60,297 nucleotides of DNA from a virus. Taxonomy: Duplodnaviria > Caudoviricetes. The notes under the pieces are model-generated. The model had not been told where the DNA came from, made no database searches, and saw nothing but the letters and a program-made list of their open reading frames with translations. A program made the position numbers and the translations under genes. Where the stretch lies: the IMG/VR virus record IMGVR_UViG_3300017941_000009, positions 1 to 60,297 of that record. One strand, given 5' to 3'. Shown here piece by piece: positions 20,904-41,352 of the stretch; within the stretch, counting starts at the first letter, position 1; every line of letters starts with the position of its first letter.

Positions 20904-21105
20904 ACGGGAAGGGCTCGGCGCGGCGGCCCGCGGCCTTCGTGCCGCGGTGCGGGACGGTGCGGCACGTCTTCCTCGCCGGCTACGACCGCTGCGTCTGCGG
21001 CGAGCGCAAGCTCTCGGTGCCGCTGTACCGCGGCACGCTTCACCCGGTGGAGATTCCCTCGGAGTTCTATGAGGAGATTCTCCCCCTTGAGGCTCGGAGG
21101 AGGCG

Positions 21106-21840: not shown

Positions 21841-21845
21841 GTGGG

Positions 21846-22010: not shown

Positions 22011-22022
22011 CGGAACCTCCCT

Positions 22023-22169: not shown

Positions 22170-22244
22170 GGGGCCCTCTCTCGGGATGAACAGTGAAAGG
22201 CGCGGTACTATGATGATGCGCGATGCACGCACGAGCAAGACGCC

Positions 22245-22517
22245 GTGAGCGTCTACGTCGATCACGTGCGGAACTGGGGCTGGAGGCTGGGGCCGAACGC
22301 GCACCTGTTCGCGGACTCTCTCGAGGAGCTGCACGCCTTCGCCCGCACACTGGGACTGCGGAGCGACTGGTTCCAGAACCGACCGGACTTCCCGCACTAT
22401 GACTTGACGGGGAGGCGGCACGCTGCGGCGCTCCGTCATGGAGCCACGCTGGTCAGCAACCAGTTCGTGTTCGAGCGCCTGCAGGTCAACCGTGCAGCGC
22501 GAGAGGCAACGCCGTGA
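22245..22517 (+). CDS. DUF4031 family protein
   Basis: VYVD...HLFADSLEELHAFARTLGLRSDWFQ...PHYDLT...A...GA. Confidence 0.88.
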   Translation: MSVYVDHVRNWGWRLGPNAHLFADSLEELHAFARTLGLRSDWFQNRPDFPHYDLTGRRHAAALRHGATLVSNQFVFERLQVNRAAREATP

Positions 22518-23245: not shown

Positions 23246-23754
23246 ATCAGCTTGTGTACCGCGACGAGAACCTCGAGCTCTGGCACGGCCATGCGGCCGA
23301 TTACGAGGGGCGGCGGCCAGACCTCATCTTCACGAATCCCCAGGCGTGGCTGCCGAAGACCTTCTCGGGTGTGCCGATGCTGCTGCACCAGCGACTGTGC
23401 CGCAAGAGGGCTTTGGCGCGCTGGGCGCACGTCCACGAGCGCGACCTCCATCTCATCAGCCTGTGGAACAATGGGCGTGAGGCGTTCTGGACCGTGAACA
23501 TCGAGGTGCCGTGCTGGGTGGAGCTCGGCCGGTATGTCCCGGACCCGCCCGGCCGGTGGCCACTGGGCCTCGCGGACAGCCTGCTGGAGGTCTACGGTAC
23601 GGTGGGTGGCTTACTCTGGGACGGGTTCATGGGCCGTGGCACGGGAGCCAAGGCGGCACTCGGCGCGGGGATGTACTACGTGGGCATCGAGTGCCGGTCG
23701 GAAGCCATCGAACTGGCACGGGCCTATCTCCACCTCGCTCCGGCGGGCGTGTGA
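23242..23754 (+). CDS. Degenerate N4/N6 DNA-methyltransferase-like protein
   Basis: DLIFTNPQA sits where DPPY is expected; motif I LWDGFMGRGT and YVGIE are retained; very short. Confidence 0.65.
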   Translation: MNQLVYRDENLELWHGHAADYEGRRPDLIFTNPQAWLPKTFSGVPMLLHQRLCRKRALARWAHVHERDLHLISLWNNGREAFWTVNIEVPCWVELGRYVPDPPGRWPLGLADSLLEVYGTVGGLLWDGFMGRGTGAKAALGAGMYYVGIECRSEAIELARAYLHLAPAGV

Positions 23755-25545: not shown

Positions 25546-25574
25546 TTGATACGGTTCCGCGGGACCCGTACCGT
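25546..25574 (+). promoter_or_regulatory. Putative promoter upstream of the tail block
   Basis: TTGATA-17 bp-TACCGT with an imperfect palindrome in the spacer. Confidence 0.4.
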
Positions 25575-25595: not shown

Positions 25596-26141
25596 ATGGC
25601 CGGACGGAACGGTGGACGACTGTGGTTGCCGCACGGGGTGGGGCACACACCCCAGCCGGGAGACGAGGGGCACGCCGCGGATCTCCGCGACGTGATGACG
25701 ATCGAGGAGTGGCTGGCAAAGCCGGAGACGCTCGTCACGCGGCGCGAAGCGGCCGCCTTCTGTGAAGCGGTCATCCAGGACCAGGTGCGCGCGGTCTGCC
25801 AGTACGTGGTGGACCACAACAACGCGAAGATCGAGCGGTTCGTCATCTGTACGATCGGCGAGCGCATCCTCGACTACCACGCGCAGCGCTGGTATCGCCG
25901 GCTGTGGCGGTGGATTGCTACCTTCGGGCATCGGCCGATGATGGCACCCGTTCGGGAATCGGCTAGCAGCCTCGCGCAGCACCTCGCCGCAGGAGAACCC
26001 GGCGGCGTGCGGGACGTGCAGTCCCGCATTGCGGAGATTGACCGCCTGCTGGAGGCGGGTGATGCGGGCGAGGAGATGGGGCGGCTCCTCGATGAGCGGC
26101 GCTTGCTCGAAGACCAGCTACCCAAGAGCGCACCCGAATGA
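25596..26141 (+). CDS. Hypothetical protein
   Basis: AAGGGGG SD; helical. Confidence 0.65.
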   Translation: MAGRNGGRLWLPHGVGHTPQPGDEGHAADLRDVMTIEEWLAKPETLVTRREAAAFCEAVIQDQVRAVCQYVVDHNNAKIERFVICTIGERILDYHAQRWYRRLWRWIATFGHRPMMAPVRESASSLAQHLAAGEPGGVRDVQSRIAEIDRLLEAGDAGEEMGRLLDERRLLEDQLPKSAPE

Positions 26142-26488
26142 CCAGCGCCGTGGTGAACGTCCTCATCGTGGCGTTCGTCGGCTGGATCCTCGCGGCGCTG
26201 ATGGTCGGGCTCTGGCTCGGTGAGCGTGGCCGGCGCGCCGCGGCTGAGCGGCTGGTGGTGTACGGCAGTCCGGATGCAGGTGCAGGGACGCAGCCGGTCA
26301 GCCGGGCCCCCTCGAAGGAGGCGGAGGATCGCCTCAGGGACGTGGAGTTCGAGTTCTCGGAGGAGACGGTCAGTCGGGCGATGGCGGACCTCAAGGTCGC
26401 CGCTGATGCCCAGGGTCTCACCGTCAGCGAGGACCAGCTCCGCAACGAAGCGCTGCGGCTGCTGGGCGGGCAGAGCGTAGACGAGTAG
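26138..26488 (+). CDS. Membrane-anchored hypothetical protein
   Basis: N-terminal TM helix, ATGA coupling. Confidence 0.65.
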   Translation: MTSAVVNVLIVAFVGWILAALMVGLWLGERGRRAAAERLVVYGSPDAGAGTQPVSRAPSKEAEDRLRDVEFEFSEETVSRAMADLKVAADAQGLTVSEDQLRNEALRLLGGQSVDE

Positions 26489-26498
26489 TCGCGTGCCG

Positions 26499-26597
26499 AC
26501 ATAGCCCCGCCGAGTCGGCGGGGCCCGGAGAACCGACACGAAGGCCCGGTGTAGCCGCAACGCGCGCGGCGCACCGGGCCTTTGGACGTTGGGGGAG
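26499..26597 (+). promoter_or_regulatory. Structured leader motif, copy A
   Basis: ACATAG-hairpin-CCGGAGAACCGACACGAAGGCCCGG-hairpin-TTT...CGTT-GGGGG SD; second copy at 40989. Confidence 0.65.
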
Positions 26598-26604
26598 AAC
26601 GGCG

Positions 26605-27333
26605 ATGCCAGTTACCACGACCCCGATGAATATCATCACGGCGGCGTACAACTACAGCTCGAAGAACAAGCCGGGGACGATCGCCACGGAGGCGACCGAG
26701 CTCCTGCAGCTCGTGATCCGGCGCTTGCGGCGCCTGTACGCGCTGGCGCCGCGCATCAACTACACCTACTTCGCGGGCTTCGCGGAGGTGGATGCCAACG
26801 CCGAGAGCGGCGGGCCGGAGGATGAGGGCTGGGAGCGGCCCCAGGAAGCGGAGTCCGTCTTCCGCATCGAGCGCACCAGTCACACCGTGGGTGGTCAGGG
26901 CAAGCCGCGCGACGAGGTGAAGATCGTCGGCTACGACGACGTGAAGGCCGAGGAGGGATACGGCTGCGTGTTCCGCATGGGCCAGACGTACTTCTCAGCC
27001 GGCAATCCCCTCGATCCGACCGGCGGGCAGCTCCGCATCTTCTTCAGCCGGCGGCCGACCGATCCTACGACCGTCAACGACCCGCTTGACGTGCAGTGGA
27101 CCGAGCAGTTCAACGACCTACTGATACTCGATGTGGCGGCGTACCTCGCGGCGAAAGATGGCCGGGACGCCGAGGCGGCGAGCCTGCGCGCGGAGCGCAA
27201 GGAGTGGCTGCAGCAGTTCGTGATGTTCCTCGAGCACTGCGAGGCCAACGAGGTGCGGCGGCTGGCCAATGTGCGGCGCTTCAACACGAACACCCTGGTG
27301 CCGCTGACCACCTTCCTGCCCGCGGCCGGGTAA
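26605..27333 (+). CDS. Head-tail adaptor / tail ring-like protein 1
   Basis: N-terminal helix pair, central beta region, C-terminal EQFNDLLILDVAAYLAAK pattern typical of podovirus adaptors. Confidence 0.6.
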   Translation: MPVTTTPMNIITAAYNYSSKNKPGTIATEATELLQLVIRRLRRLYALAPRINYTYFAGFAEVDANAESGGPEDEGWERPQEAESVFRIERTSHTVGGQGKPRDEVKIVGYDDVKAEEGYGCVFRMGQTYFSAGNPLDPTGGQLRIFFSRRPTDPTTVNDPLDVQWTEQFNDLLILDVAAYLAAKDGRDAEAASLRAERKEWLQQFVMFLEHCEANEVRRLANVRRFNTNTLVPLTTFLPAAG

Positions 27334-27342
27334 GGGGCACCG

Positions 27343-28056
27343 ATGAGCACCACTGTTGAAGACATCGCCATCCAGGCCCTGGCCCGCTGCGCGGAGTTCG
27401 GGGGCAGCTATCCGACGACGCGGTCGGTGATGTACCGCCGGGTCGGCGCGCGGCAGCAGGCACTCTACGCGGCCGCCGCGCGCGCCAACCCCGAGTATTT
27501 CGGCGCCGAGGCCATCGGCACACTGGATGCGCAGAAAGCCATCAGCTTGGCGTCGTTGGGCGACCCGGCCGCCGGGGATCCGGTGCCGAACATGGAGCTC
27601 ATCTCGAAGATCGAGGTCGCGGTCTCCAGTGGCGCGGGCGCGCTGCCGGTCGGCACCGAGATCCACGTCGTGCCCATCACCGATGCCATGAACGCCGCTC
27701 TGCCGCCGCGGGTCACGTTCCGCGGTGGGGTCATCGCCCAAGTGGGCACGGACCTCGCGACAGTTACGAAGATCAATGTCTACTACTCGCACCGACCCTT
27801 CAACCTGCGGCCCACGGACAAGGCGGCCCTCATTGAATTGCCGGAGTCCTTCCACGAGCTCCTGGTGCTGGACCTGGCGCGCTGGTTGCTGCGGAAGGCC
27901 AGCTCGGTGACGAAGGAAGTGCGCGAGGTGGCGCTGGCCGCCCTCGAGGCGGAGGAGAAGGAGGAGTTGGTCAACTTCCTCGCCACCGTGCAGGCGTTCA
28001 CCAGCGCGGTGGAGCGCGGGAGGTTCTCTCGGACGCAGGGTTCCACGCGCCAATAG
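27343..28056 (+). CDS. Head-tail adaptor / tail ring-like protein 2
   Basis: VYYSHRP...IELPESFHELLVLDLARWLLRK; paralogous to the previous gene. Confidence 0.6.
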   Translation: MSTTVEDIAIQALARCAEFGGSYPTTRSVMYRRVGARQQALYAAAARANPEYFGAEAIGTLDAQKAISLASLGDPAAGDPVPNMELISKIEVAVSSGAGALPVGTEIHVVPITDAMNAALPPRVTFRGGVIAQVGTDLATVTKINVYYSHRPFNLRPTDKAALIELPESFHELLVLDLARWLLRKASSVTKEVREVALAALEAEEKEELVNFLATVQAFTSAVERGRFSRTQGSTRQ

Positions 28057-28065
28057 GAGGCTCGG

Positions 28066-28458
28066 ATGGCAGTCAAGACGGCGCTACTCGCGCGCAGTGC
28101 AGCGGTCACAGCCCTCATCGCCTACATCGGCGCCGGTGGCAAGCTCACGCTCTACGATGGCGCGGTGCCGACGGATGCTGATACGGCGCTCGGGGGCGGG
28201 AACCACGCGCTCGTGACCTTCACGGTTCCCTCGTGGTCGGTGAGCGGGGATACGGCAACGGCCGCAGCCATCGCGGCGGCGGTCGCCATTGCGAGCGGCG
28301 TGGCCGCCTTCTTCCGGCAGTACCAGGCGGACGGCGTCACCTGCGGATTCCAGGGTACGGTCGGCACGGCAGGGGCGGACTGCCTCATCAACGACACGAC
28401 CATCGTGTCGGGCGCCGCGGTGTCGATGCTCGCGGCCGACTACCAGCTTCCGGCGTAA
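28066..28458 (+). CDS. Small virion structural protein
   Basis: GGKLTLYDGAVPTDADTA...ASGVAAFFR...QGTVGTAGAD...I..G..V pattern seen in phage tail modules. Confidence 0.7.
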   Translation: MAVKTALLARSAAVTALIAYIGAGGKLTLYDGAVPTDADTALGGGNHALVTFTVPSWSVSGDTATAAAIAAAVAIASGVAAFFRQYQADGVTCGFQGTVGTAGADCLINDTTIVSGAAVSMLAADYQLPA

Positions 28459-28467
28459 CGAGGAACC

Positions 28468-30123
28468 GTGGCCGACCGCGCGCCCTACCTCAGCCCCTCC
28501 ATCGTGCACGTGGGGATGAGCAAGTCCTCTCCTGTGAGGCAGGTGCGGATCTACTTCTGGGCGGTGGGCATCGGGCCGGCGTTCGCGGGTTCTGGCCTGA
28601 TGGCATACACGGAGCTGCTGACCAACCTTGCGGCGGCGTACTCGATCGGACTGGGAACGGCATCCTGCGGGTGGCCCGCCTACAATGGCATCACGGGGGA
28701 TGATCCCGGCGCGGCGGAGATTGATGGCTACAACTACCTCGTGGTCACGCTCACGCCGACTGGCGGCAGGGATGTCACGGACGGGAGCATCATCATCAAC
28801 ACGCCGCTCGGCACGGCGGTCATCTACATCCACGGCTTCACCGAGTCGTCGCTCATCTACGATCGGTTCATCGATGCCGACGCCACGGCGCTCAAGGACC
28901 ACACACCGGACACGGCGCCTGCGGGCGACCTCGTCGGCTACCAGGGCCAGCTCGGCAATCAGTCTGCCATCTACGGCGACGACCTCTATCCGGGCTGTTG
29001 CACCGGCAACTTCTATCGGGGGCGCCTCTACTCCGCGCTCCACGATGCGTACTGCTCCTATGTCGATGTGAGCCGGGGCGACCACGATGGCGTGGCCGTC
29101 TCGCAGGGCGTCACGATCCGCGACAGCCGCGTGGCCGGGGTGACGGACGGCGGCGAGGAAACCATCCAGTTCTACTTCGCCCACAAGGATGCCACGCACG
29201 TCTGGCTCAACTGGGAGCAGCGCAAGGACGGTACGGTCTACCAGCACGACTACAACTTCGCCTCCATCGCCCTGGCCCCCAATGCCCAGGCGCGACTCCT
29301 CGCGCACATCAAAGGGGACCAACTCCGGCTCTACACCGGGGATGCGGGAGGCGGGAACTACGTCCTGCAGAAGACTGTGACGCTGGCCACGCCGTGGAAC
29401 GATGCCAGCCACCTGTACGCGGGGGTCGTGCAGCAGCACTACGACTCGACCAGCTACTACGGGAAGCTGCTGACCTTCGGGAGTTCGCAGCTTGCCTTCG
29501 TGGTGACGCCCTCCGGCGGGGCCCTCGGTCCGGGGCGGGATGTGCGCTTCGCCTCCGTGCTGGGCGCGCCGGCGCCGCCCGCGCAGCTCGGGTCCATCGA
29601 TGCCATCCCGAGCGGCTTCCCGTGCCAGGACCTCACCGCGACGGTCGCCTACGTCGAGGGCGCGGGCTGGCTGGCGGTCAGCCTCGGTGCAACCACCACG
29701 CCGGCCGGCTTCACGATGACGGTGGATCCGACGGGCCTCGCCATCGGACTCTATCACGCGACCATCACCTTGGACTCCCCGGATGCGGACTCCGATCCGG
29801 TTGTGGTGGATGTGGAGTATGAGATTATGGATGGGGCCACGCTGACGGCCTTGGCTGCCCCCGGGATGGCCGCCCTGCTCGGGGCATCCTACCACGGGGC
29901 CACGGTAGCGGTCGCCCGGCCCGGGGTCGTCGCGTTCGTCGGTGCCACCTTCCACGCGGTGCTCGCCGCCGTGGCGAGTGCGGGGCGGTCGGCACTCGAG
30001 GCGGAGAGGCCCATCTGGGCTCCGGTCACGGACGGGAACGGGGTCTGGATGCCCGGAGCTGGTGGGGCGGGATCATTCACGAAGCCGGCGGGTGCTGGCG
30101 GTTCCTGGTCGGGGGCGGCCTGA
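28468..30123 (+). CDS. Tail-associated protein with BACON-type Ig-like domain
   Basis: GWLAVSLGATTTPAGFTMTVDPTGLAIGLYHATITL...PVVVDV (about 29665..29826). Confidence 0.65.
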   Translation: MADRAPYLSPSIVHVGMSKSSPVRQVRIYFWAVGIGPAFAGSGLMAYTELLTNLAAAYSIGLGTASCGWPAYNGITGDDPGAAEIDGYNYLVVTLTPTGGRDVTDGSIIINTPLGTAVIYIHGFTESSLIYDRFIDADATALKDHTPDTAPAGDLVGYQGQLGNQSAIYGDDLYPGCCTGNFYRGRLYSALHDAYCSYVDVSRGDHDGVAVSQGVTIRDSRVAGVTDGGEETIQFYFAHKDATHVWLNWEQRKDGTVYQHDYNFASIALAPNAQARLLAHIKGDQLRLYTGDAGGGNYVLQKTVTLATPWNDASHLYAGVVQQHYDSTSYYGKLLTFGSSQLAFVVTPSGGALGPGRDVRFASVLGAPAPPAQLGSIDAIPSGFPCQDLTATVAYVEGAGWLAVSLGATTTPAGFTMTVDPTGLAIGLYHATITLDSPDADSDPVVVDVEYEIMDGATLTALAAPGMAALLGASYHGATVAVARPGVVAFVGATFHAVLAAVASAGRSALEAERPIWAPVTDGNGVWMPGAGGAGSFTKPAGAGGSWSGAA

Positions 30124-32216
30124 TGGGCGATCGCACCGTGGTGCCGCTGCTGTACGGAGCCGGGATGGACCGCGCGACGGGGATGTTCTCCGTCGACGGG
30201 AAGGCGGGCCGCGACCTGCGGAACCTCTACCTGTACCGGGACAAGGCGCAGGTGCGCCACGGTCATGCCCGGGTCAACGACCTCGTGGTCAGTGGCGTCA
30301 CGGTCAAGGACGTGCTGCTGGTGCAGGCCATGTCGGCCGAACAGATCGGCCTCGTGGTGGGATTCGGCAACGACGGCAAGCTGTATCTCTTCCGTGTGGC
30401 AGGGGATGGCGGCGGCCTGTCAGAGATCGGCACCTGGCCAAACCTCGTCGGTGCGGACTTCACGCTGTCCGCGGGCGCACACACACCGCCGCGGGTCCTC
30501 GCGGCTGAGCAGTACAGCAAGATCTTCGTGGCGCACGATGAAGCGAACCGCATCCTGCGGGCCCCGACCGTCTACTACAATCCGTTCGGCGCACCCGCGC
30601 TCAACACGCTCACCGCCGACTTGGACGGCGACGGCAGCGCGGCACCCGTGCTCTTCCGGGGCGTCTCGCCCTACCTCACCTACCTCGTCGGCTGGGGCTT
30701 CGGCACGGAGACCGACCCCGATCATCCTGAGGTGGTGCGCGTCTCGCATCCCGACGACCCGACGCTCCTCGACCCGGATGATTACTTCGAGGCCGGGACC
30801 GGGGGTTCGCCGGTCCTCACCTGCTTGCAGGCCGGCACCGTGGACAACTCCTGCCTGCTGGTGCTGAAGCCGAGCGAGATCCACCAGATCTTCGGCTACG
30901 ACAAGAACACGTTCGGCGTGCGGCAGATTGAGAGTGGGCACGGCGTGGTAGCGAGCCGACTGGCGTACAGCCTCGGCGGGATGGTCTACTTCTGGGACCC
31001 CGAGGGACCGCGCCGCTCCAGCGGTGGGCCCTCCGAAGACCTCGCGTGGCCCCTCGACCTCGACGCGCCGAGTCCCGCGGATCTCGTGGCGGCGGGCGCG
31101 CTCGCCGATGGGTTCTGCTGCTACCTGCCCTCCCGTCGGTGTCTCCTGTTTGTCTTCGGCCCGCGTGTCTACGTCCTGAACCTCTGGGACGCCGGCGCGC
31201 TCAAGTGGAGTTACGGCGAGCTCGGGTTTGCGGCGCAAAGCGGCGGCGTCCTCTACCAGGGCCTCGATGCGCCGAGTGCGCCGCCGACCGCGGCCGCCTC
31301 CGCCGTCACGCTCAGTGGGCCCACCGATACGACGCTGACGTGCGGCTGGACCAACGACGTCGTCGCGCACCTGACGGGTGGAGAAGTGGTGGAGGTGTGG
31401 CTCCACGCGCTCACGGCAGACACCTGGAGGCAGGCAGGCCAGGTCCTGCCCACGGGGCCGAGCACGACCCAGAGCCTCCTGCTCACGGGCCTCGTTCCCG
31501 GCACCCACTACAAGGCGCAGGTGCGCTACCGCCGCGGCCCCTACTACCGTGCGGACTACACTGGCGTGCCGGGCACGTGGCCCTCGGGGTCGCTCTCGGG
31601 GACGGAAGCCCCGCTGATTGCGGCACCTGTGCTCGCCGTGCCGGTGTGGTCCCGGCTCTCGCCCAGCCTAGAGCAGATCGCGCTGGCGTGGACGGGCAGC
31701 GCCCTCGTCTCCTCGCTCGTCTATCGCGACGGGGTGCTCATCGCCACGCTCCCAGCCGGGGTGTTCGGCTACGCGGACCAGACCATCGCAGGAGAGACCT
31801 CCTACGTCTACACCGTGACGCAGAAGGGCGATGACGAGAGTGCGCCCTCGGCGCAGACAGTGTGGTCCGGTCCGCTGCCGGCCGACAGCGTCGTCGGGGA
31901 ATCCTGCGGCATCGGTGAAGGCCCCGGGCCCGGCTACTGGTATCTCAACTTCCACGTGCCGGCCGCCTTCGTGGGACCGGGCACCGCGGCGTTCTACGAG
32001 TCGCTCACCCCCGGTGGCGAAAACTATGGCGCTGCGCCAACGGGCTCGCGGGTGGTGGTGGCCGGCGCGAACTACAGCATCGCCGGTGCCATCTTCGGGG
32101 GCAGCTACTGTCCGGATCCGACGCACGTCTACGGTACCCTCGTGCTCACGGATGCCAACGGTGACGTGAGCGCACCCTCGGCGGAAGGGGACGTGTTCAC
32201 GGTGACGTGCCCATGA
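30123..32216 (+). CDS. Tail nozzle-like beta-propeller protein with C-terminal FN3 domains
   Basis: Propeller-like blades (VRVSHPDDP, LLVLKPSEIHQI, HGVVASR, VYFWDPEG); FN3 motifs LTGLVPGTHYKAQVRY and VYRDGVLI...YVYTV. Confidence 0.65.
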   Translation: MGDRTVVPLLYGAGMDRATGMFSVDGKAGRDLRNLYLYRDKAQVRHGHARVNDLVVSGVTVKDVLLVQAMSAEQIGLVVGFGNDGKLYLFRVAGDGGGLSEIGTWPNLVGADFTLSAGAHTPPRVLAAEQYSKIFVAHDEANRILRAPTVYYNPFGAPALNTLTADLDGDGSAAPVLFRGVSPYLTYLVGWGFGTETDPDHPEVVRVSHPDDPTLLDPDDYFEAGTGGSPVLTCLQAGTVDNSCLLVLKPSEIHQIFGYDKNTFGVRQIESGHGVVASRLAYSLGGMVYFWDPEGPRRSSGGPSEDLAWPLDLDAPSPADLVAAGALADGFCCYLPSRRCLLFVFGPRVYVLNLWDAGALKWSYGELGFAAQSGGVLYQGLDAPSAPPTAAASAVTLSGPTDTTLTCGWTNDVVAHLTGGEVVEVWLHALTADTWRQAGQVLPTGPSTTQSLLLTGLVPGTHYKAQVRYRRGPYYRADYTGVPGTWPSGSLSGTEAPLIAAPVLAVPVWSRLSPSLEQIALAWTGSALVSSLVYRDGVLIATLPAGVFGYADQTIAGETSYVYTVTQKGDDESAPSAQTVWSGPLPADSVVGESCGIGEGPGPGYWYLNFHVPAAFVGPGTAAFYESLTPGGENYGAAPTGSRVVVAGANYSIAGAIFGGSYCPDPTHVYGTLVLTDANGDVSAPSAEGDVFTVTCP

Positions 32217-32719
32217 TCGCCAACCTCTTCCTCGGCGAGTCGGGAGGTGCCCGGCTGCTCGAAGCGGACCAGGGCAGCCACGACGACGGCGAGCGGGTCT
32301 ACGCGCGCCTCGAGACGGTGGCCGCTGGTCCCGGCCTCGGGGGCGAGGCCATCTTCACCGCCCTGTTCATTGGCATTGAGAACAATGCCGATGCGGACGT
32401 GGATGTGACGCCGATCATCACGGGGGCGAACGAGGATGGCACCCCGTTCGAGCGCGAGCTCGAGACCCAGCAGATCACGCTCCACGCCAGCGCGGAACGC
32501 ACGCGCGTCCAGTACCAGCTCGGCGTCTCCGACCCACTGATCATCGGCGGCGTCGAGGTCGGGCGGTTCGCCGCGCGCGCCACCTGGTTCCGGGTGCGCA
32601 TCGTGGCGCTGGTCCATTCGCCGGGCGATCTCCTCTTCCACGGTCTCGGCGTCGAGATGGAAGTCGTGCGCGAGGCCATCCCGACACAGGCGCCAGCGCC
32701 CGTTCCGGCGGGGTCCTAG
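32213..32719 (+). CDS. Probable nozzle C-terminal beta-sandwich encoded separately
   Basis: [12 protein letters not shown]...RATWFRVRI...LLFHGLGVE resembles the C-termini of podovirus nozzle proteins. Confidence 0.5.
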
Positions 32720-35700
32720 TGGCTGGCGGCTTCCGGCGCCAGACCAGTAAGGGGCTGCCACAGCCCCTCTTGCCCGGCGCAGCCGGCGCCGATCTCACGG
32801 CGCTCGTCCGCACCCTGGATTCCTACGTCATCGACCAGTGGGCGTGGAAGGAGCCGGCCACCCAGCGTCTCCTCTACGCCTACAAGGGCGGTACGGTCTT
32901 CACGGGCCTGGCCTTCATCCTGATCCCCGACGGCACGACCCCGCTCGCGGACAACGCCACCAACTACGTCGAACGGGATAGCGCGGGTGCCGTCTCGGTC
33001 AACAGCACGGGCTTCAGCGCCGCCCGGACGCCGATGGCGAAGGTCGCCACGGCCGGCGGCCAGATTGCGACCGTGGAGGACTGGCGGCCCCTGGCGCAGT
33101 CCTCGTCTGGGAACCTCTCGGGGCCCAGTGGCCCCTCTGGTCCCTCGGGCCCCGGCTCGACCGTGTCAGGCCCCAGCGGTCCCTCGGGTCCGAGCGGGCC
33201 GGCGTCTACGGTCTCCGGACCGTCTGGGCCGTCTGGTCCTGTGTCCACGGTCTCGGGCCCCAGTGGTCCCAGTGGCCCTAGCGGCCCCGTCTCGACCGTC
33301 AGCGGCCCTTCGGGGCCGTCGGGACCCTCCGGTCCAGGGGGCGCGGCCTCGACGGTCTCCGGGCCTTCTGGGCCCTCGGGGCCCCACGGTGCCGATTCGA
33401 CGGTGAGCGGGCCGAGCGGGCCATCTGGCCCGCAAGGTGCCGCTTCCACTGTGTCCGGGCCGAGTGGCCCTTCGGGTCCCCAGGGTGCAGCATCCACGAT
33501 CTCCGGCCCGAGCGGGCCGAGCGGACCGAGCGTCACTGGACCTTCGGGACCCTCGGGCCCTTCTGGACCGCAGGGGGCGGCTTCGACGGTCTCGGGCCCG
33601 AGCGGTCCCAGCGGCCCCGTCTCAACCACCAGTGGGCCTTCGGGTCCATCGGGCCCTTCCGGGCCGGGTGGTGCCGCCTCGACAGTGAGCGGCCCCAGCG
33701 GACCCTCAGGGCCCCAGGGAGCGGCCTCGACCGTCAGCGGTCCCTCAGGACCTAGTGGACCGCAGGGAACAGCAAGCACGGTAAGCGGGCCGTCTGGTCC
33801 TTCTGGTCCGTCTGGGCCGCAAGGAACTGCTTCGACGGTGTCGGGGCCGTCGGGACCGAGTGGACCCACGGGTGCCGCATCTACCGTCAGCGGACCGAGC
33901 GGTCCCTCGGGGCCGCAGGGGAACCCCTCGACGGTCTCGGGACCCTCCGGGCCCTCCGGTCCGAGCGGTCCTCAAGGCGCTGCCTCAACCGTTAGCGGGC
34001 CGAGTGGTCCATCCGGGCCACAGGGAGCAGCTTCGACGGTCAGCGGCCCTTCGGGGCCCAGTGGACCCACGGGAGCGGCATCCACGGTCTCTGGCCCGTC
34101 TGGGCCCTCGGGTCCGCAAGGGAATGCTTCGACGGTGAGTGGGCCCTCCGGCCCCAGTGGGCCGTCCGGGCCGCAGGGTGCCGCCAGTACGGTCTCTGGG
34201 CCGTCCGGACCGAGCGGGCCACAGGGCACTGCTTCTACGGTATCTGGGCCCTCGGGTCCTTCGGGTCCTCAGGGTGCAGCATCCACGATCAGCGGCCCCT
34301 CAGGCCCCTCCGGACCACAGGGAAACGCCTCGACCGTGAGCGGGCCGTCTGGGCCAAGCGGCCCTTCGGGACCACAGGGAGCGGCGAGCACGGTCTCTGG
34401 GCCAAGTGGTCCCTCAGGCCCTCAAGGCGCAGCTTCCACGGTCTCGGGGCCCTCCGGACCGAGTGGCCCACAGGGGAATGCCTCGACGGTCTCCGGACCG
34501 AGCGGTCCTTCTGGGCCTTCCGGACCACAGGGAGCTGCCTCCATAGTCTCTGGCCCCTCAGGTCCGAGTGGCCCGCAGGGCGCTGCATCGACCGTTAGCG
34601 GGCCGAGTGGACCGAGTGGACCCCAGGGTGCCGCCTCGACGGTTTCGGGGCCCTCGGGGCCGTCCGGACCGCAAGGCGCGGCATCCACGGTTTCGGGGCC
34701 GAGCGGGCCCAGTGGACCCACGGGCGCAGGGGGCCCGAGCGGACCTTCCGGACCCTCCGGGCCGAGTGTCACCGGCCCGAGCGGCCCCTCAGGACCCAGC
34801 GGGCCGGCGGGATCCCTGGCGCACCACGTCCTCTCGGCTACTCACACGGACTCCAATGCCGCAGCGGCCGGCGTGGCCCGCGGCGATCTCCTGGTGGGCA
34901 ATGCCACGCCGGCTTGGGACCGGCTCGCTTTCCCGGCCTCTCCAACCGGGAAGGTGGTCGTCGCCTCGGCGACGGACATCGGGTGGAGCGCGAACCCGCT
35001 CGGCAGTGCGGCGTGGGCGGCGACGGGGGACTTCGCTCCGGCGGCGGGGACCTTCACGAACACGATAACTCAAAGCCCCGCGACTGACGGGATAGATGGC
35101 ATCATCCTCAACGGCAGGGACTCGGTAAGCGGGAACCTCTACAATGTCTTCCGGCTGATAGCCTATGCCAATTCCGGCGGGGCGACTCCGACGTGGACGT
35201 TGGGAATCATCAATACTGCGAACTCTGCGTGGCAACCCGTACTAACGGCAGCGACCTCTGGCGCGGCGACCTTCGCGGCGGGCCTCACCATCGCCGGTGC
35301 GCTCGCAGGCGTGACGACGACACAGTTCCATGCCATCACCTATACGTGGCCCTCTGCTGATGCGGGAGCCAGCGGTTACGTCCTCTCCTCTAACGCCTCG
35401 GGCACTTTGAGTTGGGTTGCCCAAACGGCCGCCGCGGCGGTGACGAGTGTGGCCGGTCGCACAGGGGCTGTGGTACTGACGGCGGCTGACATCGGGGCGG
35501 GAACATTCCCGAGTGGTCAGTTCAAAATGGGTGGCACACCGTGGGCAGCTTCTCTTGATGCGCTTAACATGGGAGTTAACCAGAGGATTACGTTCCGTAA
35601 CTACAATGACAACGATGACGTTAGCATCAGTGGTGGCTTCAACGGCATATCGGGAAGTGCTCTTACTGTTACTGGATATGGACTAGAGGTGTTGAATCGC

Positions 35701-35832
35701 TTCGGCTGTAACGGCAAGTCGGCTCAACCCGCGTACGCATCCGGTGGTGCGGCGGGTGGGACTCTGGCACAGGTAACGACGTTGGCGAATAACATCCGGG
35801 CGGCGCTCGTTGCCGACGGTATCATGTCGTAG
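32719..35832 (+). CDS. Collagen-like tail fibre
   Basis: About 560 aa of (GPS)n interrupted by GAASTVS; [19 protein letters not shown] fibre motif; distinct C-terminal tip. Confidence 0.88.
33121..34812 (+). repeat. Coding tandem repeat GPSGPS(GPS)[10 protein letters not shown]
   Basis: Visible directly in the translation; synonymous codons vary strongly between copies. Confidence 0.95.
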
Positions 35833-36070
35833 TGGGGTTTGCCGGTCGTGTCGAACTAAGGAGTGTGGAGGCTTCCATTGCGGCATCGACCCGACAGTTT
35901 GCTTCGGGATGTGGCGTCCGTTGCACGAGATTCTCCTGGCCGACGCCTACCGGGATTCTGCCTGGGCCGTGCGGCACGAGATGTTACACGACATCTTACA
36001 GGATGCGGGACATCCACCCGTGTTTGACCGTTGTACAAGTGACATTCTCACCACAGGAGTCCTACGATGA
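35810..36070 (+). pseudogene. HExxH metallopeptidase-like fragment
   Basis: AVRHEMLHDILQDAGHPPVFDRC; no convincing start or SD, and its 5' part overlaps the fibre stop. Confidence 0.4.
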
Positions 36071-36276
36071 CGTACCAGATGAAGGTGCAGTCCGCGAGCA
36101 GCCAGGATGGCCGGATGATGGGGCCGCCCCCGGCGGCTGCCGTTCCGGCGATGCTGAACGTGCAGCTCGTGCCGGTGGATGCCAACATCGGCGGGTTCGG
36201 CTTCTCGGTCGAGAAGACGCCGGACACGATCAGGCAGTACGCGGTGGACACGGTGGTCCCCGTCACGGTCGGCTGA
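36067..36276 (+). CDS. Hypothetical protein
   Basis: AGGAG SD. Confidence 0.6.
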   Translation: MTYQMKVQSASSQDGRMMGPPPAAAVPAMLNVQLVPVDANIGGFGFSVEKTPDTIRQYAVDTVVPVTVG

Positions 36277-36311
36277 GGGCGTAGCCGGCTCAACCCGTTC
36301 CTGGGGGGTGT

Positions 36312-36701
36312 GTGAAGAAGCTCAACTACGGGCAGTTCGGGGCGAAGAAGGATCGGATGTTCTCGCTGACCTGGCTTGGGTATCGTGCCGCCTACCCCAA
36401 GCACTCGGCCGGCTATGAGCAGATGAAGCTCTGCAACCGGATCGGCGAGAAGCTGGAGCAGATGAGCAAGGAGGCGCCGACCCCGCAGGACGCCGCGGAG
36501 CGGCTCCCCACCAAGTCCGTCCTGCTCCTGGATGGTCACGAGCACGAGAAGCTGCTCGCGATGCTGAAGTCGGAGGAGGTCGGCTGGACCTACCTCGCCG
36601 GCAAGGAGGTCGAGGTGCTGATCGAGGCGATGGTATCGGCCCCCGAGGTGGAGGTCGAGGAGAAGGTCCGCGGCCGGGCCAAGAAGAAGGGGAAGCGGTA
36701 G
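36312..36701 (+). CDS. Hypothetical protein (possible fibre chaperone)
   Basis: Position after the fibre; helical; function inferred from context only. Confidence 0.6.
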   Translation: MKKLNYGQFGAKKDRMFSLTWLGYRAAYPKHSAGYEQMKLCNRIGEKLEQMSKEAPTPQDAAERLPTKSVLLLDGHEHEKLLAMLKSEEVGWTYLAGKEVEVLIEAMVSAPEVEVEEKVRGRAKKKGKR

Positions 36702-36734
36702 GATGCCCAGGCGGGGCGCCTCAAGGGGCCGGGC

Positions 36735-38432
36735 ATGAAGTATTCCGGCCTCTTGTCGAAGCGGGACGCCGTCGTTCTTCAGCACTATGCGGCGAAGGCG
36801 CCGCGCATCCTGGAGTTCGGCGCCGGCGGCTCGACCCAGATCTTCGCGCAGTGCGCGCCGGGAACCGTCCTCACCCTCGACACGAACCCGCACTGGATCG
36901 ACCAGACCAAGGCCAGCCTCAAGGCGCTCAAGGTCCCCCCGGGCCGCGTGGCGTTTCGGCTGCTACCCCACGAGACGGGCCCGTCGCTGGACGCGGCGCT
37001 CCAGCGCGAGGCGGCGCCCCGTGCGCCGTATCACCTGGTGTTCAACGACGGCGCGAGCGACCACGAGATGCGGCTGGCGTTTGCCCGTGCCGCCTGGCCG
37101 CTGCTCGCCGAGGGGGGCGCACTCCTGACGCACGATACCCGCCTCCAGCCGGACATCGGATGGCTCTGTACATTTCTGGCGGAGCACTTCGCGACGGTGG
37201 GCCGCGTGTACGCGAACCACCGCGACAGCAACATCACCGTCGTCATCAAGCGCGCTCCATTGCCCTACGAACCCTTTGTCACCGCAACCGACTGGAGACC
37301 CGAGCCGATTATGCCCACCGTCCACCTGTTGGGCCTCGCACACACGATCACCCGCCCTGAGTTCTCGAAGTGCCCCTTCACGGGGAACCTCCTGCGGTTT
37401 CCCAAGATGCTGAAGCCTTTCGGTTACAAGTGCATCCACTATGGCGTCGAGGGGGCGCAGGTCCCCGGTGCGGAGTGTGTCGCGGTGACGAGCGCCGTGC
37501 GGTTCCGGCTGCAGCACAAGGGGCACTCGTGCGATCCGCGCAGTGAGGAGAGCCTCTGGATTCCGGAGGTCTACGAGCTCGACAAGCCGGCGGCGATCGA
37601 GCACCAGAAGGGCATCGTCAAGGCCCTCCTGCCGCGGCTCTCCCGCGGGGACATCGTGTGCTTCCCCTTCGGGCGGGTGCACGAGCGGGTGCTGGCGAAG
37701 CTGCCCCCAGACGTGGTGGCGATCGAAACCGGGATCGGCTACGAGCAGGAATCCTCCATGCCGTTCCAGGTCTTCGTGTCGAACGCCTGGTACTCGTGGC
37801 ACCGGGGCCGTGCGCGGAACATGAACGGCGACTACTACAAGTTCGTGATCGGCAACTCGTTCGATGTCGACGAGTGGACGGTGCGTCCCATCCCCAAGAA
37901 GGGGTATGTGCTCTACCTCGGGCGGTGCAACGAAGACAAGGGGATGCGGATCATCTACGACCTGGCCGCCGCGCGGCCCGACCTGCAGTTCGTCCTCTGT
38001 GGCCAGGGCGCGACGTTCTGGGCCCAGCTCCCGAACATGAAGGCGCTGCCACAGGTCTGGGGCAAGGAGCGGAACACGCTCTTTGCTGGCGCGCAGGTGG
38101 TGTTGATGCCGAGCCTGTACCTCGAAGCGTTCGGGAACGTCTGCGCTGAAGCCCAGCTCTGTGGGCGCCCGGTGCTGAGCACGCCCTGGGGGGCCTTCCC
38201 CGAGATCCTCGCGCACGGGGTGGCAGGCTACCACTGCCGCACCCTGGGGGACTTCCTCAAGGGACTCGAGCTGGCACCGACGCTCAGTCCCAAGGCGATT
38301 CGTGCGCAGGCGGTGGCGCAGTTCTCCCTGCCGGTGGCGGGCGCGAAGTATCACGCGGCCTTCCAGCAGTGCCAGGACCTCCTCGCGGGTCCCGGGTGGG
38401 CCTCGCGAACCCCCCACTGGATCAACGCATGA
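36735..38432 (+). CDS. SAM-methyltransferase + GT-B (GT4-like) glycosyltransferase fusion
   Basis: ILEFGAGGST...LVFNDG...LLTHD, then LYLGRCNEDKG...PSLYLEAFGNVCAEAQLCGRPVL. Confidence 0.9.
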   Translation: MKYSGLLSKRDAVVLQHYAAKAPRILEFGAGGSTQIFAQCAPGTVLTLDTNPHWIDQTKASLKALKVPPGRVAFRLLPHETGPSLDAALQREAAPRAPYHLVFNDGASDHEMRLAFARAAWPLLAEGGALLTHDTRLQPDIGWLCTFLAEHFATVGRVYANHRDSNITVVIKRAPLPYEPFVTATDWRPEPIMPTVHLLGLAHTITRPEFSKCPFTGNLLRFPKMLKPFGYKCIHYGVEGAQVPGAECVAVTSAVRFRLQHKGHSCDPRSEESLWIPEVYELDKPAAIEHQKGIVKALLPRLSRGDIVCFPFGRVHERVLAKLPPDVVAIETGIGYEQESSMPFQVFVSNAWYSWHRGRARNMNGDYYKFVIGNSFDVDEWTVRPIPKKGYVLYLGRCNEDKGMRIIYDLAAARPDLQFVLCGQGATFWAQLPNMKALPQVWGKERNTLFAGAQVVLMPSLYLEAFGNVCAEAQLCGRPVLSTPWGAFPEILAHGVAGYHCRTLGDFLKGLELAPTLSPKAIRAQAVAQFSLPVAGAKYHAAFQQCQDLLAGPGWASRTPHWINA

Positions 38433-38445
38433 AGGTGCCCAAGTC

Positions 38446-38473
38446 TTGCATGGGCGGCCGCCGCCCCCATCTT
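38446..38473 (+). promoter_or_regulatory. Putative promoter upstream of portal
   Basis: TTGCAT-16 bp-CATCTT in an intergenic gap. Confidence 0.4.
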
Positions 38474-38517
38474 AGGGGTGTCGGTACCGTCCTTCTCCTG
38501 ACTGAGGTCGTTCGCGC

Positions 38518-40785
38518 GTGACTGCTCTCTTCCGCCCCCGCGAGAAGCCCCCCACGCCGCAAGGGGATACCACGCCGAGGCACGAGCGCTGGCTCCCGCC
38601 GGCGCTCCGCACGAACAACCAGGAAGACGACCTCGACTCCAAGCGTGCCACCTGGGCTGAGGAGCGGTGGACGGAACAGGATGCCATCTACCGTCTCCGG
38701 GACCGCTCGATCGAAGAGCACATCCGGATGATTGCCGGTCAGCAGTGGTGGGTGTACCACCATCTCCTGGGCTGGCAGGACATCTTCCACTGGATGACGG
38801 ACGACGAGAAGCGCTGGCGCCAGCGCCCCGTCTTTAACCGCATCCTGCCGTGGTTCATCCTCACGCACGCGCGGTTCACCGAGAACCCCTTCATCTGCAC
38901 GTTCCTGCCGGGCCCCGACCAGCACGACGCCGAGGTGGCGGAGATGCTGGACACGCTCTACAAGATCAAGTGGCGCGACACGGGGATGGTGGATGTGTGG
39001 GCGCGGTGTGCCTCGTGGATCATCGCGTCCGGGACGGGCTTCCAGCAGAGCCGGATCGACCTCAGTAAGGGCGAGTTCGAGGACTGGGTCGGCAAGGCGG
39101 AACTCGCGCTGCTCGGCCCCGACGGTCAGCCCGTCCTGCGCGAGGATGGCCAACCCATCACCCGTGAGATCCCCGAGGGCGTGCCGTTCGATGCCAAGGG
39201 CCAGCCGCTCGCCGAGTTGACCTCCGAGGGCCTGCGCATCACCGGCAAGCCGCACCGGGAACGCCGCGGCGATCTGGTGATGGATGTGCACTCGCCGCTC
39301 GAGGTGCGGGGGCAGTGGGGACCGCGGCCGTGGCACGAGCAGAAGATTCACCTGATCCGCTCCTACATCCCCCCGAGCGAGGTGTACGAGCGCTGGGGCG
39401 TCGAGGTCGAGCCGGACGTCACGGATCTTCCCTCGGGGTCAGCGGGCTTTCTGGAGCGGATGCTGTTCGGCTCCGGCTTCTACGGCGCAGCGTCCTCGCC
39501 CGTGCACCCCTACGCGACGGGCAGTGCGCAGGCATCACCCGACGGGTACTGCTGCATCCAGAGCACGTGGATGGCCCCCTCGAAGGCCGTCGAGGGGATG
39601 GAGGAGACAGAGGAGAGCACGGGCGGACGCCTATTGGTGACGGCGAAGGGCAAGACGCTCTTCGATGGTCCGCGCCCCTTCAAGTGTAAGTGGACGAGCC
39701 CAGTCCGTTGCTACGAGTTCATCCGCTTGCCGGGCCGGCCGTGGGGCTCCACCCCACTCGAGATGCTGGTCTCCCCACAGAAGGCGTACAATCAGGGCTG
39801 GAAGCAGGTCCTGGAGAACCGGGCCCTGTGCGCGAACCCGCAGCAGGTGTACGACCTCGATTCCGGCCTCCGCAGCAACCAGGTCGACAACCGCCCGGGT
39901 CGCCAGTACGGTGTCCGGATGAAGAAGGGCGTGAAGCCCATCGACTGGATCATCCCGCCGGCGATGGGGTCGGACGTCTGGCGCAGCCAGCTCGCGCTCT
40001 CACAGGAGCTCTCCTACATCGGCTCGCAGACGGGCACCGATGCCCAGCAGACGATGTCGCGGCGCTCCTCCGCGAAGATGATGGAGGAACTGCGGTTCAA
40101 CGACGACCGCTTCATCGGCCCCACGATGATGCGGTGCGCCGAAGAGAATGGGCGGATGATCGAGGACTGGCGGGCGATGGCGCGCGTGCTCTACACCACG
40201 GAGACCCTCCTCAAGTACACGGGCGAAGACTCGGCGGCGCGTGCAGTCGTGCTGATGCCGCAGCTCCTCGACACCGCGGACGTCACGGTCCAGCCGGACA
40301 TCGAATCCATGAAGCCGGAGGGCCGGGGCGAGCGCCGCCAGCGGGTGTACCAGATGTGGAAGGACAGCGCCTTCGGCGACCCGAAGAGTCCGCAGGCGCG
40401 GCGTATCCTGTACGAGGTGGGGCGGTTCCCGAGCATGGCGCAGATGGTGCCGGGCGGGGTCCACCTCGCTGCCGCGAAGCAAGAGAACGCGAAGATGGTG
40501 CAGGGGCAGGCGTGCCAGGTGGAGGAGTGGCAGGATCACGAGGTGCACCTCGATGCGCACGAGACATTCATGGCGGCGCCGGAGTTCACGCGCCTACCGG
40601 ACGCCGTGCGGGCCATCTTCATCGAGCACCGGCGCCAGACGATGGAGGGCCTGGTGCGGAAGCAGCGGCAGATGCAGCTCATGGCACAGGCGGCCCAGGC
40701 GCCACCGATGCCCCTGCCTGGCGCCCCGGCGCCGGGTGCTCTCCCGGCGGGGGCACCGGCGCAGCCCGCAGGCGCTGCTGCGTGA
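38518..40785 (+). CDS. Portal protein (P22-like, long)
   Basis: 755 aa; GQQW...FNRILP...D.EVAE, PGRPWGSTPLEMLVSPQKAYN, QDHEVHLDAH...; Pro/Ala/Gln tail; upstream of scaffold and capsid. Confidence 0.85.
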   Translation: MTALFRPREKPPTPQGDTTPRHERWLPPALRTNNQEDDLDSKRATWAEERWTEQDAIYRLRDRSIEEHIRMIAGQQWWVYHHLLGWQDIFHWMTDDEKRWRQRPVFNRILPWFILTHARFTENPFICTFLPGPDQHDAEVAEMLDTLYKIKWRDTGMVDVWARCASWIIASGTGFQQSRIDLSKGEFEDWVGKAELALLGPDGQPVLREDGQPITREIPEGVPFDAKGQPLAELTSEGLRITGKPHRERRGDLVMDVHSPLEVRGQWGPRPWHEQKIHLIRSYIPPSEVYERWGVEVEPDVTDLPSGSAGFLERMLFGSGFYGAASSPVHPYATGSAQASPDGYCCIQSTWMAPSKAVEGMEETEESTGGRLLVTAKGKTLFDGPRPFKCKWTSPVRCYEFIRLPGRPWGSTPLEMLVSPQKAYNQGWKQVLENRALCANPQQVYDLDSGLRSNQVDNRPGRQYGVRMKKGVKPIDWIIPPAMGSDVWRSQLALSQELSYIGSQTGTDAQQTMSRRSSAKMMEELRFNDDRFIGPTMMRCAEENGRMIEDWRAMARVLYTTETLLKYTGEDSAARAVVLMPQLLDTADVTVQPDIESMKPEGRGERRQRVYQMWKDSAFGDPKSPQARRILYEVGRFPSMAQMVPGGVHLAAAKQENAKMVQGQACQVEEWQDHEVHLDAHETFMAAPEFTRLPDAVRAIFIEHRRQTMEGLVRKQRQMQLMAQAAQAPPMPLPGAPAPGALPAGAPAQPAGAAA

Positions 40786-40973
40786 GCGCACCGGCACGGG
40801 TCCGGACCGAGGACCTACAGGCCCAGCAGGCGGTCGAGTTGCTGGTCGGGTTGGTCCGAGAGGGGTTCCACGGCAGCGTGGAGATCCACTTCGATCACGG
40901 TCGCCCGGAGCTGGCGAAGAAGCATGTCACGGTGCACTTCGAGAAGCCGCGCGACTTGCTGCGAAGAGGGTAG
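40782..40973 (+). CDS. DUF2292/YezD-like microprotein (63 aa)
   Basis: LVREGFHGSVEIHFDHGRPELAKKHVTVHF fits the [FY]G[SE]VxIx[FV]xxG pattern; GTGA-coupled to portal. Confidence 0.65.
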   Translation: MSAPARVRTEDLQAQQAVELLVGLVREGFHGSVEIHFDHGRPELAKKHVTVHFEKPRDLLRRG

Positions 40974-40988
40974 GTCCGTAGAGTAGGT

Positions 40989-41079
40989 ACATAGCCCGCC
41001 CAGTTGGCGGGTCCGGAAGCCGATCGAAAGGCCCGGGATGCTCCTGAGGGAGCGTCTCGGGCTCTTCGCGTTCAGGGGG
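40989..41079 (+). promoter_or_regulatory. Structured leader motif, copy B
   Basis: ACATAG-hairpin-CCGGAAGCCGATCGAAAGGCCCGG-hairpin-TCTT...CGTT-AGGGGG SD. Confidence 0.65.
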
Positions 41080-41085: not shown

Positions 41086-41352
41086 ATGGAGCACACGTAC
41101 AAGCGGCATGGGGTGGTGAAAGGACTCCGCGAGGACTACGACGACAAGAATCTCGTCGGCGTGGAGTTCGAGGAGCCTGCCCCACCCGCGAAGAAGCGCA
41201 GCCCCAAGTCGCCCGGCATGGTGTCGATGCCCCGCAGCCACACCGTCCCGATGCCGCGCGAGAAGGCCAAGCACTTCGCGGTGGGCGATGCGGTGGAGTA
41301 CGAGGCGACCCTCCGCCACTTCGGGAAGCACGGCGCGAAGGAGGATGCGTAG
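41086..41352 (+). CDS. Hypothetical protein
   Basis: SD directly after leader motif B. Confidence 0.65.
   Translation: MEHTYKRHGVVKGLREDYDDKNLVGVEFEEPAPPAKKRSPKSPGMVSMPRSHTVPMPREKAKHFAVGDAVEYEATLRHFGKHGAKEDA

Follow-up and report, generated by a model that had tools for sequence, protein, structure and literature searches.

The window analyzed here, a 60,297-nt linear viral contig in IMG/VR (record IMGVR_UViG_3300017941_000009; 68.8% G+C; CheckV completeness of ~72%), carries two copies of a structured leader on its plus strand, one (copy A, positions 26499 to 26597) before the tail block and the other (copy B, positions 40989 to 41079) before the head block. We suggest, with confidence somewhat short of even, that this element is a regulated attenuator in the leaders of late operons and that it exists as a duplicated cassette. 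The leader is duplicated within the window, copy B follows a promoter pattern that is conserved in related phages, its GC-rich hairpin is conserved in both position and pairing, and the leader core occurs independently of the 63-amino-acid (63-aa) microprotein encoded directly upstream of copy B. The element is a new and narrowly distributed example of a familiar type of control region.

At copy B, a host sigma-70-type promoter overlapping the end of the microprotein gene would start transcription at about the hexamer ACATAG. The resulting leader of ~75 to 90 nt would comprise an optional 5' hairpin, a short single-stranded linker, a long GC hairpin, and a T-containing tail, so that the head genes would be expressed only where RNA polymerase reads through this terminator-like signal. 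Transcripts entering copy A from upstream, for which a candidate promoter at positions 25546 to 25574 is the likely source, would meet the same checkpoint. Read-through may be raised late in infection by a putative antitermination factor of the phage or its host, a logic that we liken to that of lambda pR'-tR' with Q or of PalpB-tB with AlpA. The timing of late-gene expression in such phages is almost undescribed, and a promoter with an immediate terminator-like hairpin offers a concrete control point.

Two copies of one leader

The two copies share all of their parts in the same order. ACATAG (26499 to 26504 in A; 40989 to 40994 in B, where it would lie at about +1) is followed by hairpin 1 (26504 to 26524 and 40994 to 41012), a linker containing CCGGA..CCGA..CGAA (26525 to 26542 and 41013 to 41029), hairpin 2, which is opened by GGCCCGG (26543 to 26580 and 41030 to 41063), a T-containing tail (TTTGGACGTT at 26581 to 26590 and CTTCGCGTTC at 41064 to 41073), and a ribosome-binding site (GGGGGAG at 26591 to 26597 and GGGGG at 41075 to 41079), with the downstream ATG at 26605 in A and 41086 in B. 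Reading both copies thus bore out the parts and coordinates given in an initial annotation of this DNA, and the same holds for their genomic setting, as adaptor-like and tail fiber genes follow copy A and the major head protein gene follows copy B, with the scaffold labeled by position only. Both copies start 10 to 15 nt past a stop codon. As that annotation had also observed, the apex sequences of hairpin 2 in A and B are unrelated, and yet both pair. Copy A folds at −70.3 kcal/mol (z = −5.0; 0 of 200 shuffles as stable) and copy B at −56.6 kcal/mol (z = −2.9; 1 of 200).

When copy A was aligned locally to the rest of the window on both strands, the top alignment was copy B (40989 to 41036) with a score of 44, which none of 100 dinucleotide shuffles reached (mean, 31.2; standard deviation, 2.5; maximum, 41). 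A covariance model scored A and B at 79.4 and 77.9 bits; as these two were its training sequences, the scan speaks only to a third copy, and none was found in the window by this model, the next match scoring 12.7 bits (E = 0.19). With copy A as the query, a BLAST-based search of the record returned no match to B at E ≤ 10, and the 9-mer ACATAGCCC, with one mismatch allowed, was not enriched in the window (5 matches versus 7.06 expected). The significance of the duplication rests on the whole 50-nt 5' half together with the equivalent position and architecture of the two copies. Across the window there was no Rfam match at the gathering level, the best E values near A and B being 1.7 and 7.1, far under gathering scores. 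Exact-pattern scans of IMG/VR returned 21 stretches with ACATAG plus hairpin 1, none with the rest of the element, and 111 stretches with ACATAG..GGCCCGG..CCGGGCC, none related among the 82 matches read in 80 loci. The X2 peat-run DNA contigs over A and B showed no differences there and no joint linking A to B.

Over its 5' half, A is 81% identical to B and 56 to 70% identical to the orthologous leaders of other phages. As A is closer to B than to any orthologue, we consider it a paralogue of B that arose or was homogenized within this lineage. Between the copies, the 5' halves have stayed alike, whereas the hairpin 2 apex and the promoter region no longer match, which suggests that the transcribed 5' part is under constraint in both. 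No promoter pattern was found within 60 nt upstream of copy A, where the region equivalent to the promoter of B has decayed, reading CTGCTG in place of the −35 box and TCGCGT/TAGTCG in place of the −10 box.

Copy A sits at the 5' junction of the tail block, and this block appears to have moved. The window carries two SU10-adaptor-like genes (26605 to 27333 and 45310 to 45972), homologues of which are adjacent after the head genes in an Opitutia locus (L125, 16196 to 17481). Further, a homologue of g116, the gene just before copy A, was found by tblastn directly upstream of the portal gene in the more distant relatives L034, L089, L096, and L108 and in others. Therefore, the tail block appears to have been placed between g116 and the portal gene, implying a relocated module of ~12 kb in this clade, as judged from gene order. 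That a promoterless paralogue stands before this apparently relocated block suggests mobility of the transcribed cassette as a unit. A prophage in a Gemmatimonadales assembly (L124) also has tail fiber homologues upstream of its portal gene. Neither the L124 genome nor the L025 record yielded the adaptor protein, and the extended L124 region, which is broken by a repeat present in 17 copies, showed no start of a tail block. This repeat is a 400-nt stretch (L124 1 to 400 and 4525 to 4924; G001:C9) on the upstream side of the prophage, identical in its 17 copies across the assembly; it is probably an insertion sequence that interrupts the prophage.

Conservation of promoter and hairpin among relatives

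There were 182 portal homologues at E ≤ 0.001, and portal-driven, alignment-based locus searches yielded 52 IMG/VR loci, 47 metagenome loci, and 4 loci from GTDB genomes, among the latter the L124 prophage (portal identity, 59%). A homologue of g88, the first gene of the head block, lies 3' of the portal gene in 11 of 99 loci and in L124, that is, only in the closest clade (~56 to 65% portal identity). The region upstream of g88 was read in every g88-bearing locus, and the loci were grouped into eight lineages, five of high GC content (window B, L087, L025, L077, and L078/79/80) and three of lower GC content (L081/83, L082/86/107, and L124). The leaders examined numbered 12, comprising the two window copies and 10 from relatives.

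All eight lineages have one order of parts, namely, a −35/−10 pair, GTAGGnACATAG (replaced by ACGTAA in L078), a variable stretch, a GC hairpin, a T-containing tail, a ribosome-binding site, and a start codon. The hairpin base GGCC(C)/(G)GGCC and a tail ending in GC(G/A)TT are common to all eight, and the ribosome-binding site is strong. A conserved order of promoter, terminator-like hairpin, and ribosome-binding site is as expected of an attenuator that gates an operon. The inferred start lies within a conserved kGTAGGnACATAG in 10 of the 12 sequences. Triplets TAG or TAA are repeated before and inside ACATAG, often 8 nt apart, in the window (40940 to 40994) and in the orthologous leaders; a run of TAG-N5-TAG-N5-TAG occurs in L087 and L025, and part of the recurrence consists of the −10 box and stop codons.

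Between the portal and scaffold genes of 41 loci at greater distance (33 to 48% portal identity), a custom scan for a hairpin plus T's picked up no conserved element, and a covariance model (R1) run on 100 loci (662,231 bases) recovered only the known leaders and one weak match, in L034 (E = 0.077). Single-protein locus searches of IMG/VR with the portal and with the adaptor found nothing.

The promoter of copy B lies on the plus strand at 40956 to 40984, with TTGCTG (40956 to 40961) as its −35 box and TAGAGT (40979 to 40984) as its −10 box, separated by a 17-nt spacer. It went unmentioned in the initial annotation, and it distinguishes copy B from copy A, which has none. A strict TTGNNN-N16-18-TANNNT pattern occurs within 60 nt upstream of all five high-GC orthologous leaders (window B, L087, L025, L077, and L078), with spacers of 17 to 18 nt, and each of the five matches arose in no more than 1.3% of 2,000 shuffles; a looser TT[GT]NNN form was found in three of the four low-GC sequences tested. 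The −35 context GACTTGC is part of the coding sequence in the window and L078 but lies past the stop codon in L025 and L087; its conservation in both settings points to constraint on the DNA rather than on a protein. From these patterns, we regard the leader of copy B as a conserved sigma-70-type promoter plus a 5' untranslated region, with transcription predicted to begin at about ACATAG. In the window, the strict pattern has nine matches on both strands, three of them intergenic and that of B among them. One, the candidate promoter invoked above for copy A, is an intergenic plus-strand pattern match before g181/g116 (25546 to 25574; TTGATA, 17 nt, TACCGT), and the third is an early divergent promoter on the minus strand (11080 to 11052).

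A promoter for a T7-like phage RNA polymerase was considered as well and rejected. T7-like promoters carry ..CTATAG, to which ACATAG is loosely similar, but only 6 of the 16 bases preceding ACATAG agree between A and B, and the scanned open reading frames (ORFs) include no RNA_pol family.

A GC hairpin lies just 5' of the ribosome-binding site in all 12 leaders; in the B-type leaders of the five high-GC lineages, the hairpin and its T-run are placed 10 to 15 nt upstream of the site that serves the first gene of the head block. Fold z-scores of the leaders range from −1.3 to −6.1; taken singly, those of L078 and L124 lack significance (22 and 10 of 200 shuffles as stable). The stem base is kept, whereas neither the sequence nor the length of the apex is shared among lineages or between A and B. 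Across the five alignable high-GC sequences, 90.2% of cells were paired versus 81.1% in shuffles (7 of 500 shuffles reached the observed value), and 4 of 11 hairpin pairs had changed on both sides. Covariation, which the initial annotation had proposed to test, thus gives modest support, drawn from five related sequences. The stems of the lower-GC relatives run into a textbook terminator tail, TTTTTGCGTT or a close variant of it. We read hairpin 2 as a signal of the intrinsic-terminator type and of variable strength, at which termination may occur.

Several observations weigh against a regulated attenuator. The T-tracts of the window copies are weak (TTT in A and CTTC in B), and the T's of L077 and L087 stand apart from the stem. 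A simple terminator scan flagged neither A nor B, nor the L124 or L086 leader, although its rule demands perfect stems and these are bulged, and the same scan, which scores promoters against the Escherichia coli consensus, did not call the promoter of B. ACATAG follows the −10 box after 4 to 13 nt, or 19 nt in L081, and hence is not the start site in a strict sense. A −10-like pause element would end in T, which the conserved GTAGGnACATAG lacks, as TAGGnA has an A at position 2 and no T at position 6. Copy A has no promoter; thus, a strictly promoter-loaded mechanism of the Q type could not act there. No antiterminator family was recognized among the 67 window ORFs scanned against Pfam, in a contig that is ~72% complete, and the sequencing-run search listed no RNA runs carrying the window sequence.

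Some of these observations are also those expected of a passive boundary element, which we consider an unlikely but serious alternative. Under it, there would be no switch, and the copies would be leaky, insulating terminators and RNA-end caps that fix expression ratios, with the 3' hairpin shielding the upstream message and the 5'-proximal hairpin shielding the head or tail message from 5'-end-dependent decay. Such 5'-proximal hairpin geometry stabilizes mRNAs such as ompA, and hairpin 1 of B lies only ~3 to 5 nt from the inferred 5' end. The position after a stop codon is the usual site of an operon-end terminator, weak T-tracts are found in partial terminators, and the Pfam scans of the window ORFs found no regulator. 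In its GC-rich stem, T-containing tail, post-stop position, and fast turnover of the apex with pairing kept, the element does resemble ordinary terminators and 5' untranslated stabilizers. However, a promoter before rather than after the terminator hairpin is unusual for a plain operon boundary, and yet it is kept in all eight lineages; L025 and the low-GC lineages have no hairpin 1, so a 5' cap would not be universal; and a passive hairpin leaves unexplained the single-stranded linker conserved between A and B. Ordinary terminators also differ in that here the 5' part (ACATAG and linker) is conserved and the whole cassette is duplicated.

Candidate mechanisms and the microprotein

Among known systems, promoter-proximal antitermination provides the closest architecture to the attenuator that we favor. 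AlpA of Pseudomonas aeruginosa is reported to bind a promoter element and to let RNA polymerase bypass the downstream terminator tB (PMC9371919), and lambdoid Q proteins are described as promoter-loaded factors with which a leader terminator is bypassed. The likeness consists of a sigma-70-type promoter followed within ~100 nt by a hairpin of the intrinsic-terminator type, ahead of late or lysis genes, and of a conserved sequence across the start site; the promoter directly upstream of the leader is present at B and absent at A. The differences are that no Q or AlpA homologue was found among the 67 ORFs of the ~72% complete contig, that the cassette has no clear −10-like pause element, that the terminator-like hairpin here stands directly on the ribosome-binding site, and that there is a promoterless second copy, which a promoter-loaded factor does not explain.

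As copy A is promoterless and the part best shared by A and B is transcribed, an RNA-level signal of the kind known from nut, put, EAR, and canT fits better than a promoter-loaded factor, although the same two features fit a passive element equally well. Lambda nutL and nutR are two copies at two operons, HK022 put has a two-stem-loop anatomy, and nut sites combine a boxA-like linear motif with a boxB-like hairpin and are served by the arginine-rich N protein. The present case recalls lambda N/nut, HK022 put, Bacillus subtilis EAR, and Tn916 canT, as two structured RNA signals stand near two operon heads, one promoter proximal and one further downstream, in the manner of nutL and nutR. Such RNA-level signals are described as acting on the elongating polymerase (PMC11658703). 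In contrast to these systems, the cassette has no sequence or Rfam similarity to any of them; hairpin 1 is missing in L025 and the low-GC lineages, and no N-like protein was recognized. Moreover, those signals act on separate downstream terminators, whereas here the second hairpin is itself terminator-like.

The earliest proposal for this locus had been that the 63-aa microprotein binds the linker and controls termination or translation. Its ORF (40782 to 40973, plus strand) lies between the portal gene and copy B and is coupled to the former as first described, its GTG start overlapping the portal TGA as GTGA; it carries FHGSVEIHFDHG, and the 3' end of the gene contains the −35 box of the promoter of B. 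Four homologous representatives at E ≤ 10^−3 were found among 1.84 billion proteins, and by this sequence evidence the ORF is a genuine gene of narrow distribution. L078, L087, L077, and L025 have ORFs at the equivalent position that carry F-x-G-x-[LIV]-x-[LIV]; at 18 to 23% identity to the window protein, they are probable homologues. In the three lower-GC lineages, a different small cysteine-containing ORF, as read from its sequence, takes this place.

The label "DUF2292-like" found no support from profile models, as none of eight family members matched PF10055 (DUF2292) at E ≤ 1. HutP (PF09021) was matched by one of the eight, at chance level (E = 0.089; 13.5 bits versus a cutoff of 25), and no HutP appeared in a Foldseek search against the PDB. 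A profile search of the PDB by sequence gave nothing better than E = 0.9. The AlphaFold2 model of the microprotein comprises one helix and a beta-hairpin (pLDDT of 76), with no fold match in the PDB below E = 4.4 by Foldseek. The ESM Atlas gave subthreshold leads to DUF2292-containing clusters (feature score, 0.84; TM, 0.56 to 0.59). The microprotein thus resembles DUF2292 proteins (YezD/OscA type) in size, and its predicted helix plus beta-hairpin resembles the Atlas models at a TM under the bar of that service, but it differs in the lack of a Pfam match. We know of no function for DUF2292.

Whether the microprotein binds the leader RNA, at the linker or the TAG-rich 5' region, to control termination or translation of both operons can be weighed from its distribution, and we judge such control very improbable. 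A microprotein-like ORF stands directly upstream of the leader in all five high-GC lineages, and the CCGG..CCGA linker and hairpin 1 are restricted to these. As part of the operon that A heads and as a neighbor of B, the gene could take part in a feedback loop, and the subthreshold Atlas leads also speak for this proposal. However, the leader core (promoter, ACATAG, GC hairpin with T-run, ribosome-binding site, and g88 homologue) is present in three lineages without the microprotein, and the 6.4-Mb assembly that holds the L124 prophage contains no homologue of it (best E = 0.41). The leader core is therefore independent of the microprotein, which is the outcome that the initial annotation had itself named as refuting its model. 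The co-occurrence of linker and microprotein amounts to a single phylogenetic split and hence neither supports nor excludes binding. Further, the protein matches no RNA-binding family and nothing in the PDB, its net charge, counted from sequence, is about +1, which is not typical of an RNA binder, and its position among the portal and head genes would suit an accessory of morphogenesis equally well. What stands of the original idea of a late-gene RNA switch is a structured leader with a terminator-like hairpin, for which a role in late transcription is reasonable; the link to the microprotein lacks support, and the distribution of the core speaks against it.

A variant of the RNA-level view, which we hold to be very improbable, would combine ACAUAG, hairpin 1, and the CCGG..CCGA linker into a nut- or put-like antitermination signal that travels with its own terminator, with the DUF2292-like microprotein as its trans partner. 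The cassette would then work beside a promoter (B) and ~950 nt from one (A). If true, this would provide the first function for a DUF2292-type fold and, in phages whose hosts may be Gemmatimonadota, a new antitermination system.

A trans-acting small RNA of ~75 to 85 nt encoded by copy B, with copy A giving a processed paralogue, is in our view highly improbable. Base-pairing small RNAs have a promoter, a short transcript, and a terminator hairpin, and the layout of copy B, with its conserved, single-stranded linker, resembles this. However, the linkers of A and B share no complementary target among the 67 translation-initiation regions of the window, their top duplexes being different and ~2 to 3 standard deviations from the mean, and the element without exception abuts the ribosome-binding site of the gene that follows.

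The least credible of the alternatives, and one that we regard as extremely improbable, is a translational operator, in which the leader would fold over the ribosome-binding site until a factor or condition opened it. In phage Mu, Com, a zinc-finger protein, opens a structured leader at mom. Some minimum-free-energy folds (L025, L083, and A) do pair the ribosome-binding site or its flank, but the predicted probability that this site is unpaired is inconsistent, at 0.12 in A, 0.58 in B, and 0.0004 to 0.99 in relatives (the median for 31 window genes with a good ribosome-binding site is 0.31). The window microprotein contains no cysteine and hence lacks those of a zinc finger such as that of Com.

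For the regulated attenuator, the dependence of read-through on a factor determines its wider meaning. If read-through is factor dependent, the leader would belong to a late-gene antitermination system unrelated in sequence to Q, N, and AlpA; if not, it would be an ordinary attenuator or stabilizer, useful mainly for annotating this clade.

Source and gene map of the contig

Window DNA occurs in metagenome runs from peat and wetland. None of 50,697 GenBank phage records matched the window in DNA or in portal protein; the clade is without a cultured or GenBank relative, and its only host clue is the prophage in the metagenome-assembled Gemmatimonadales genome.

The gene map is based on ORFs supported by third-position GC content (GC3) and on family scans. 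An early region on both strands (1 to 13 kb) is followed 3' by a long plus-strand gene array. Within the early region, a near-consensus divergent promoter on the minus strand (11080 to 11052; TTGACA, 17 nt, TAATAT) lies in a 50-nt divergent gap and adjoins an 82-aa HTH_17, excisionase-like gene (11102 to 11350); the area from 11052 to 11350 is probably an early switch region. The HTH_17 protein, the only small helix-turn-helix protein in the window, was also considered as an antiterminator and rejected, as it looks excisionase-like (best PDB match, 4j2n; E = 0.09).

On the plus strand, the small and large terminase subunit genes (13850 to 16038) are followed by a block of glycosyltransferase, deacetylase, and methylase genes that extends to g181/g116. 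The late array is unusually rich in such sugar-modifying genes (16035 to 25538 and 36735 to 38432), including two GT2 glycosyltransferases, a PIG-L deacetylase, DUF4031, a methylase fragment, and a methyltransferase-GT1 fusion. g116 (26138 to 26488; GC3 of 0.87) ends 10 nt 5' of copy A. The first gene of the tail block (26605 to 27333) encodes a 242-aa adaptor-like protein (SU10_adaptor; E = 4.2 × 10^−5; 24.5 bits, under the Pfam cutoff of 27), and the block from 26605 to 35832 comprises this gene, virion proteins, and a collagen-like tail fiber. The methyltransferase/glycosyltransferase fusion (36735 to 38432) stands between the tail fiber and portal genes; at 37976 to 38119, a contig in four of four peat runs swaps 142 nt of it for an identical 33 letters, which looks like a shared variant or a related strain.

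The portal gene (38518 to 40785, plus strand; 755 aa) has weak SU10_portal and phrog_332 matches, and many portal homologues carry precomputed Pfam accessions PF16510 or PF12236, which we take to be the P22-type and T7-type portal families. Past the microprotein gene and copy B, the plus-strand head block opens with g88 (41086 to 41352), which has tblastn matches in relatives; its MEHT.K N terminus is kept there and fixes its start codon. The small gene g58 follows, then a gene labeled as scaffold from its position only, and then the major head protein gene (43009 to 44388; phrog_14242; E = 6 × 10^−19), with further virion genes 3' of it. The 564 nt directly after the major head gene (44389 to 44952) contain no GC3-supported ORF and open with a GC hairpin (GCCGGGGCC..GGCTCCGGC) that has no T-run and is possibly a terminator without a U-tract. 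After the head genes, a 1,660-aa ORF (47966 to 52948) has as its only match a DnaJ domain at residues 394 to 453 (E = 2.8 × 10^−5, under the cutoff).

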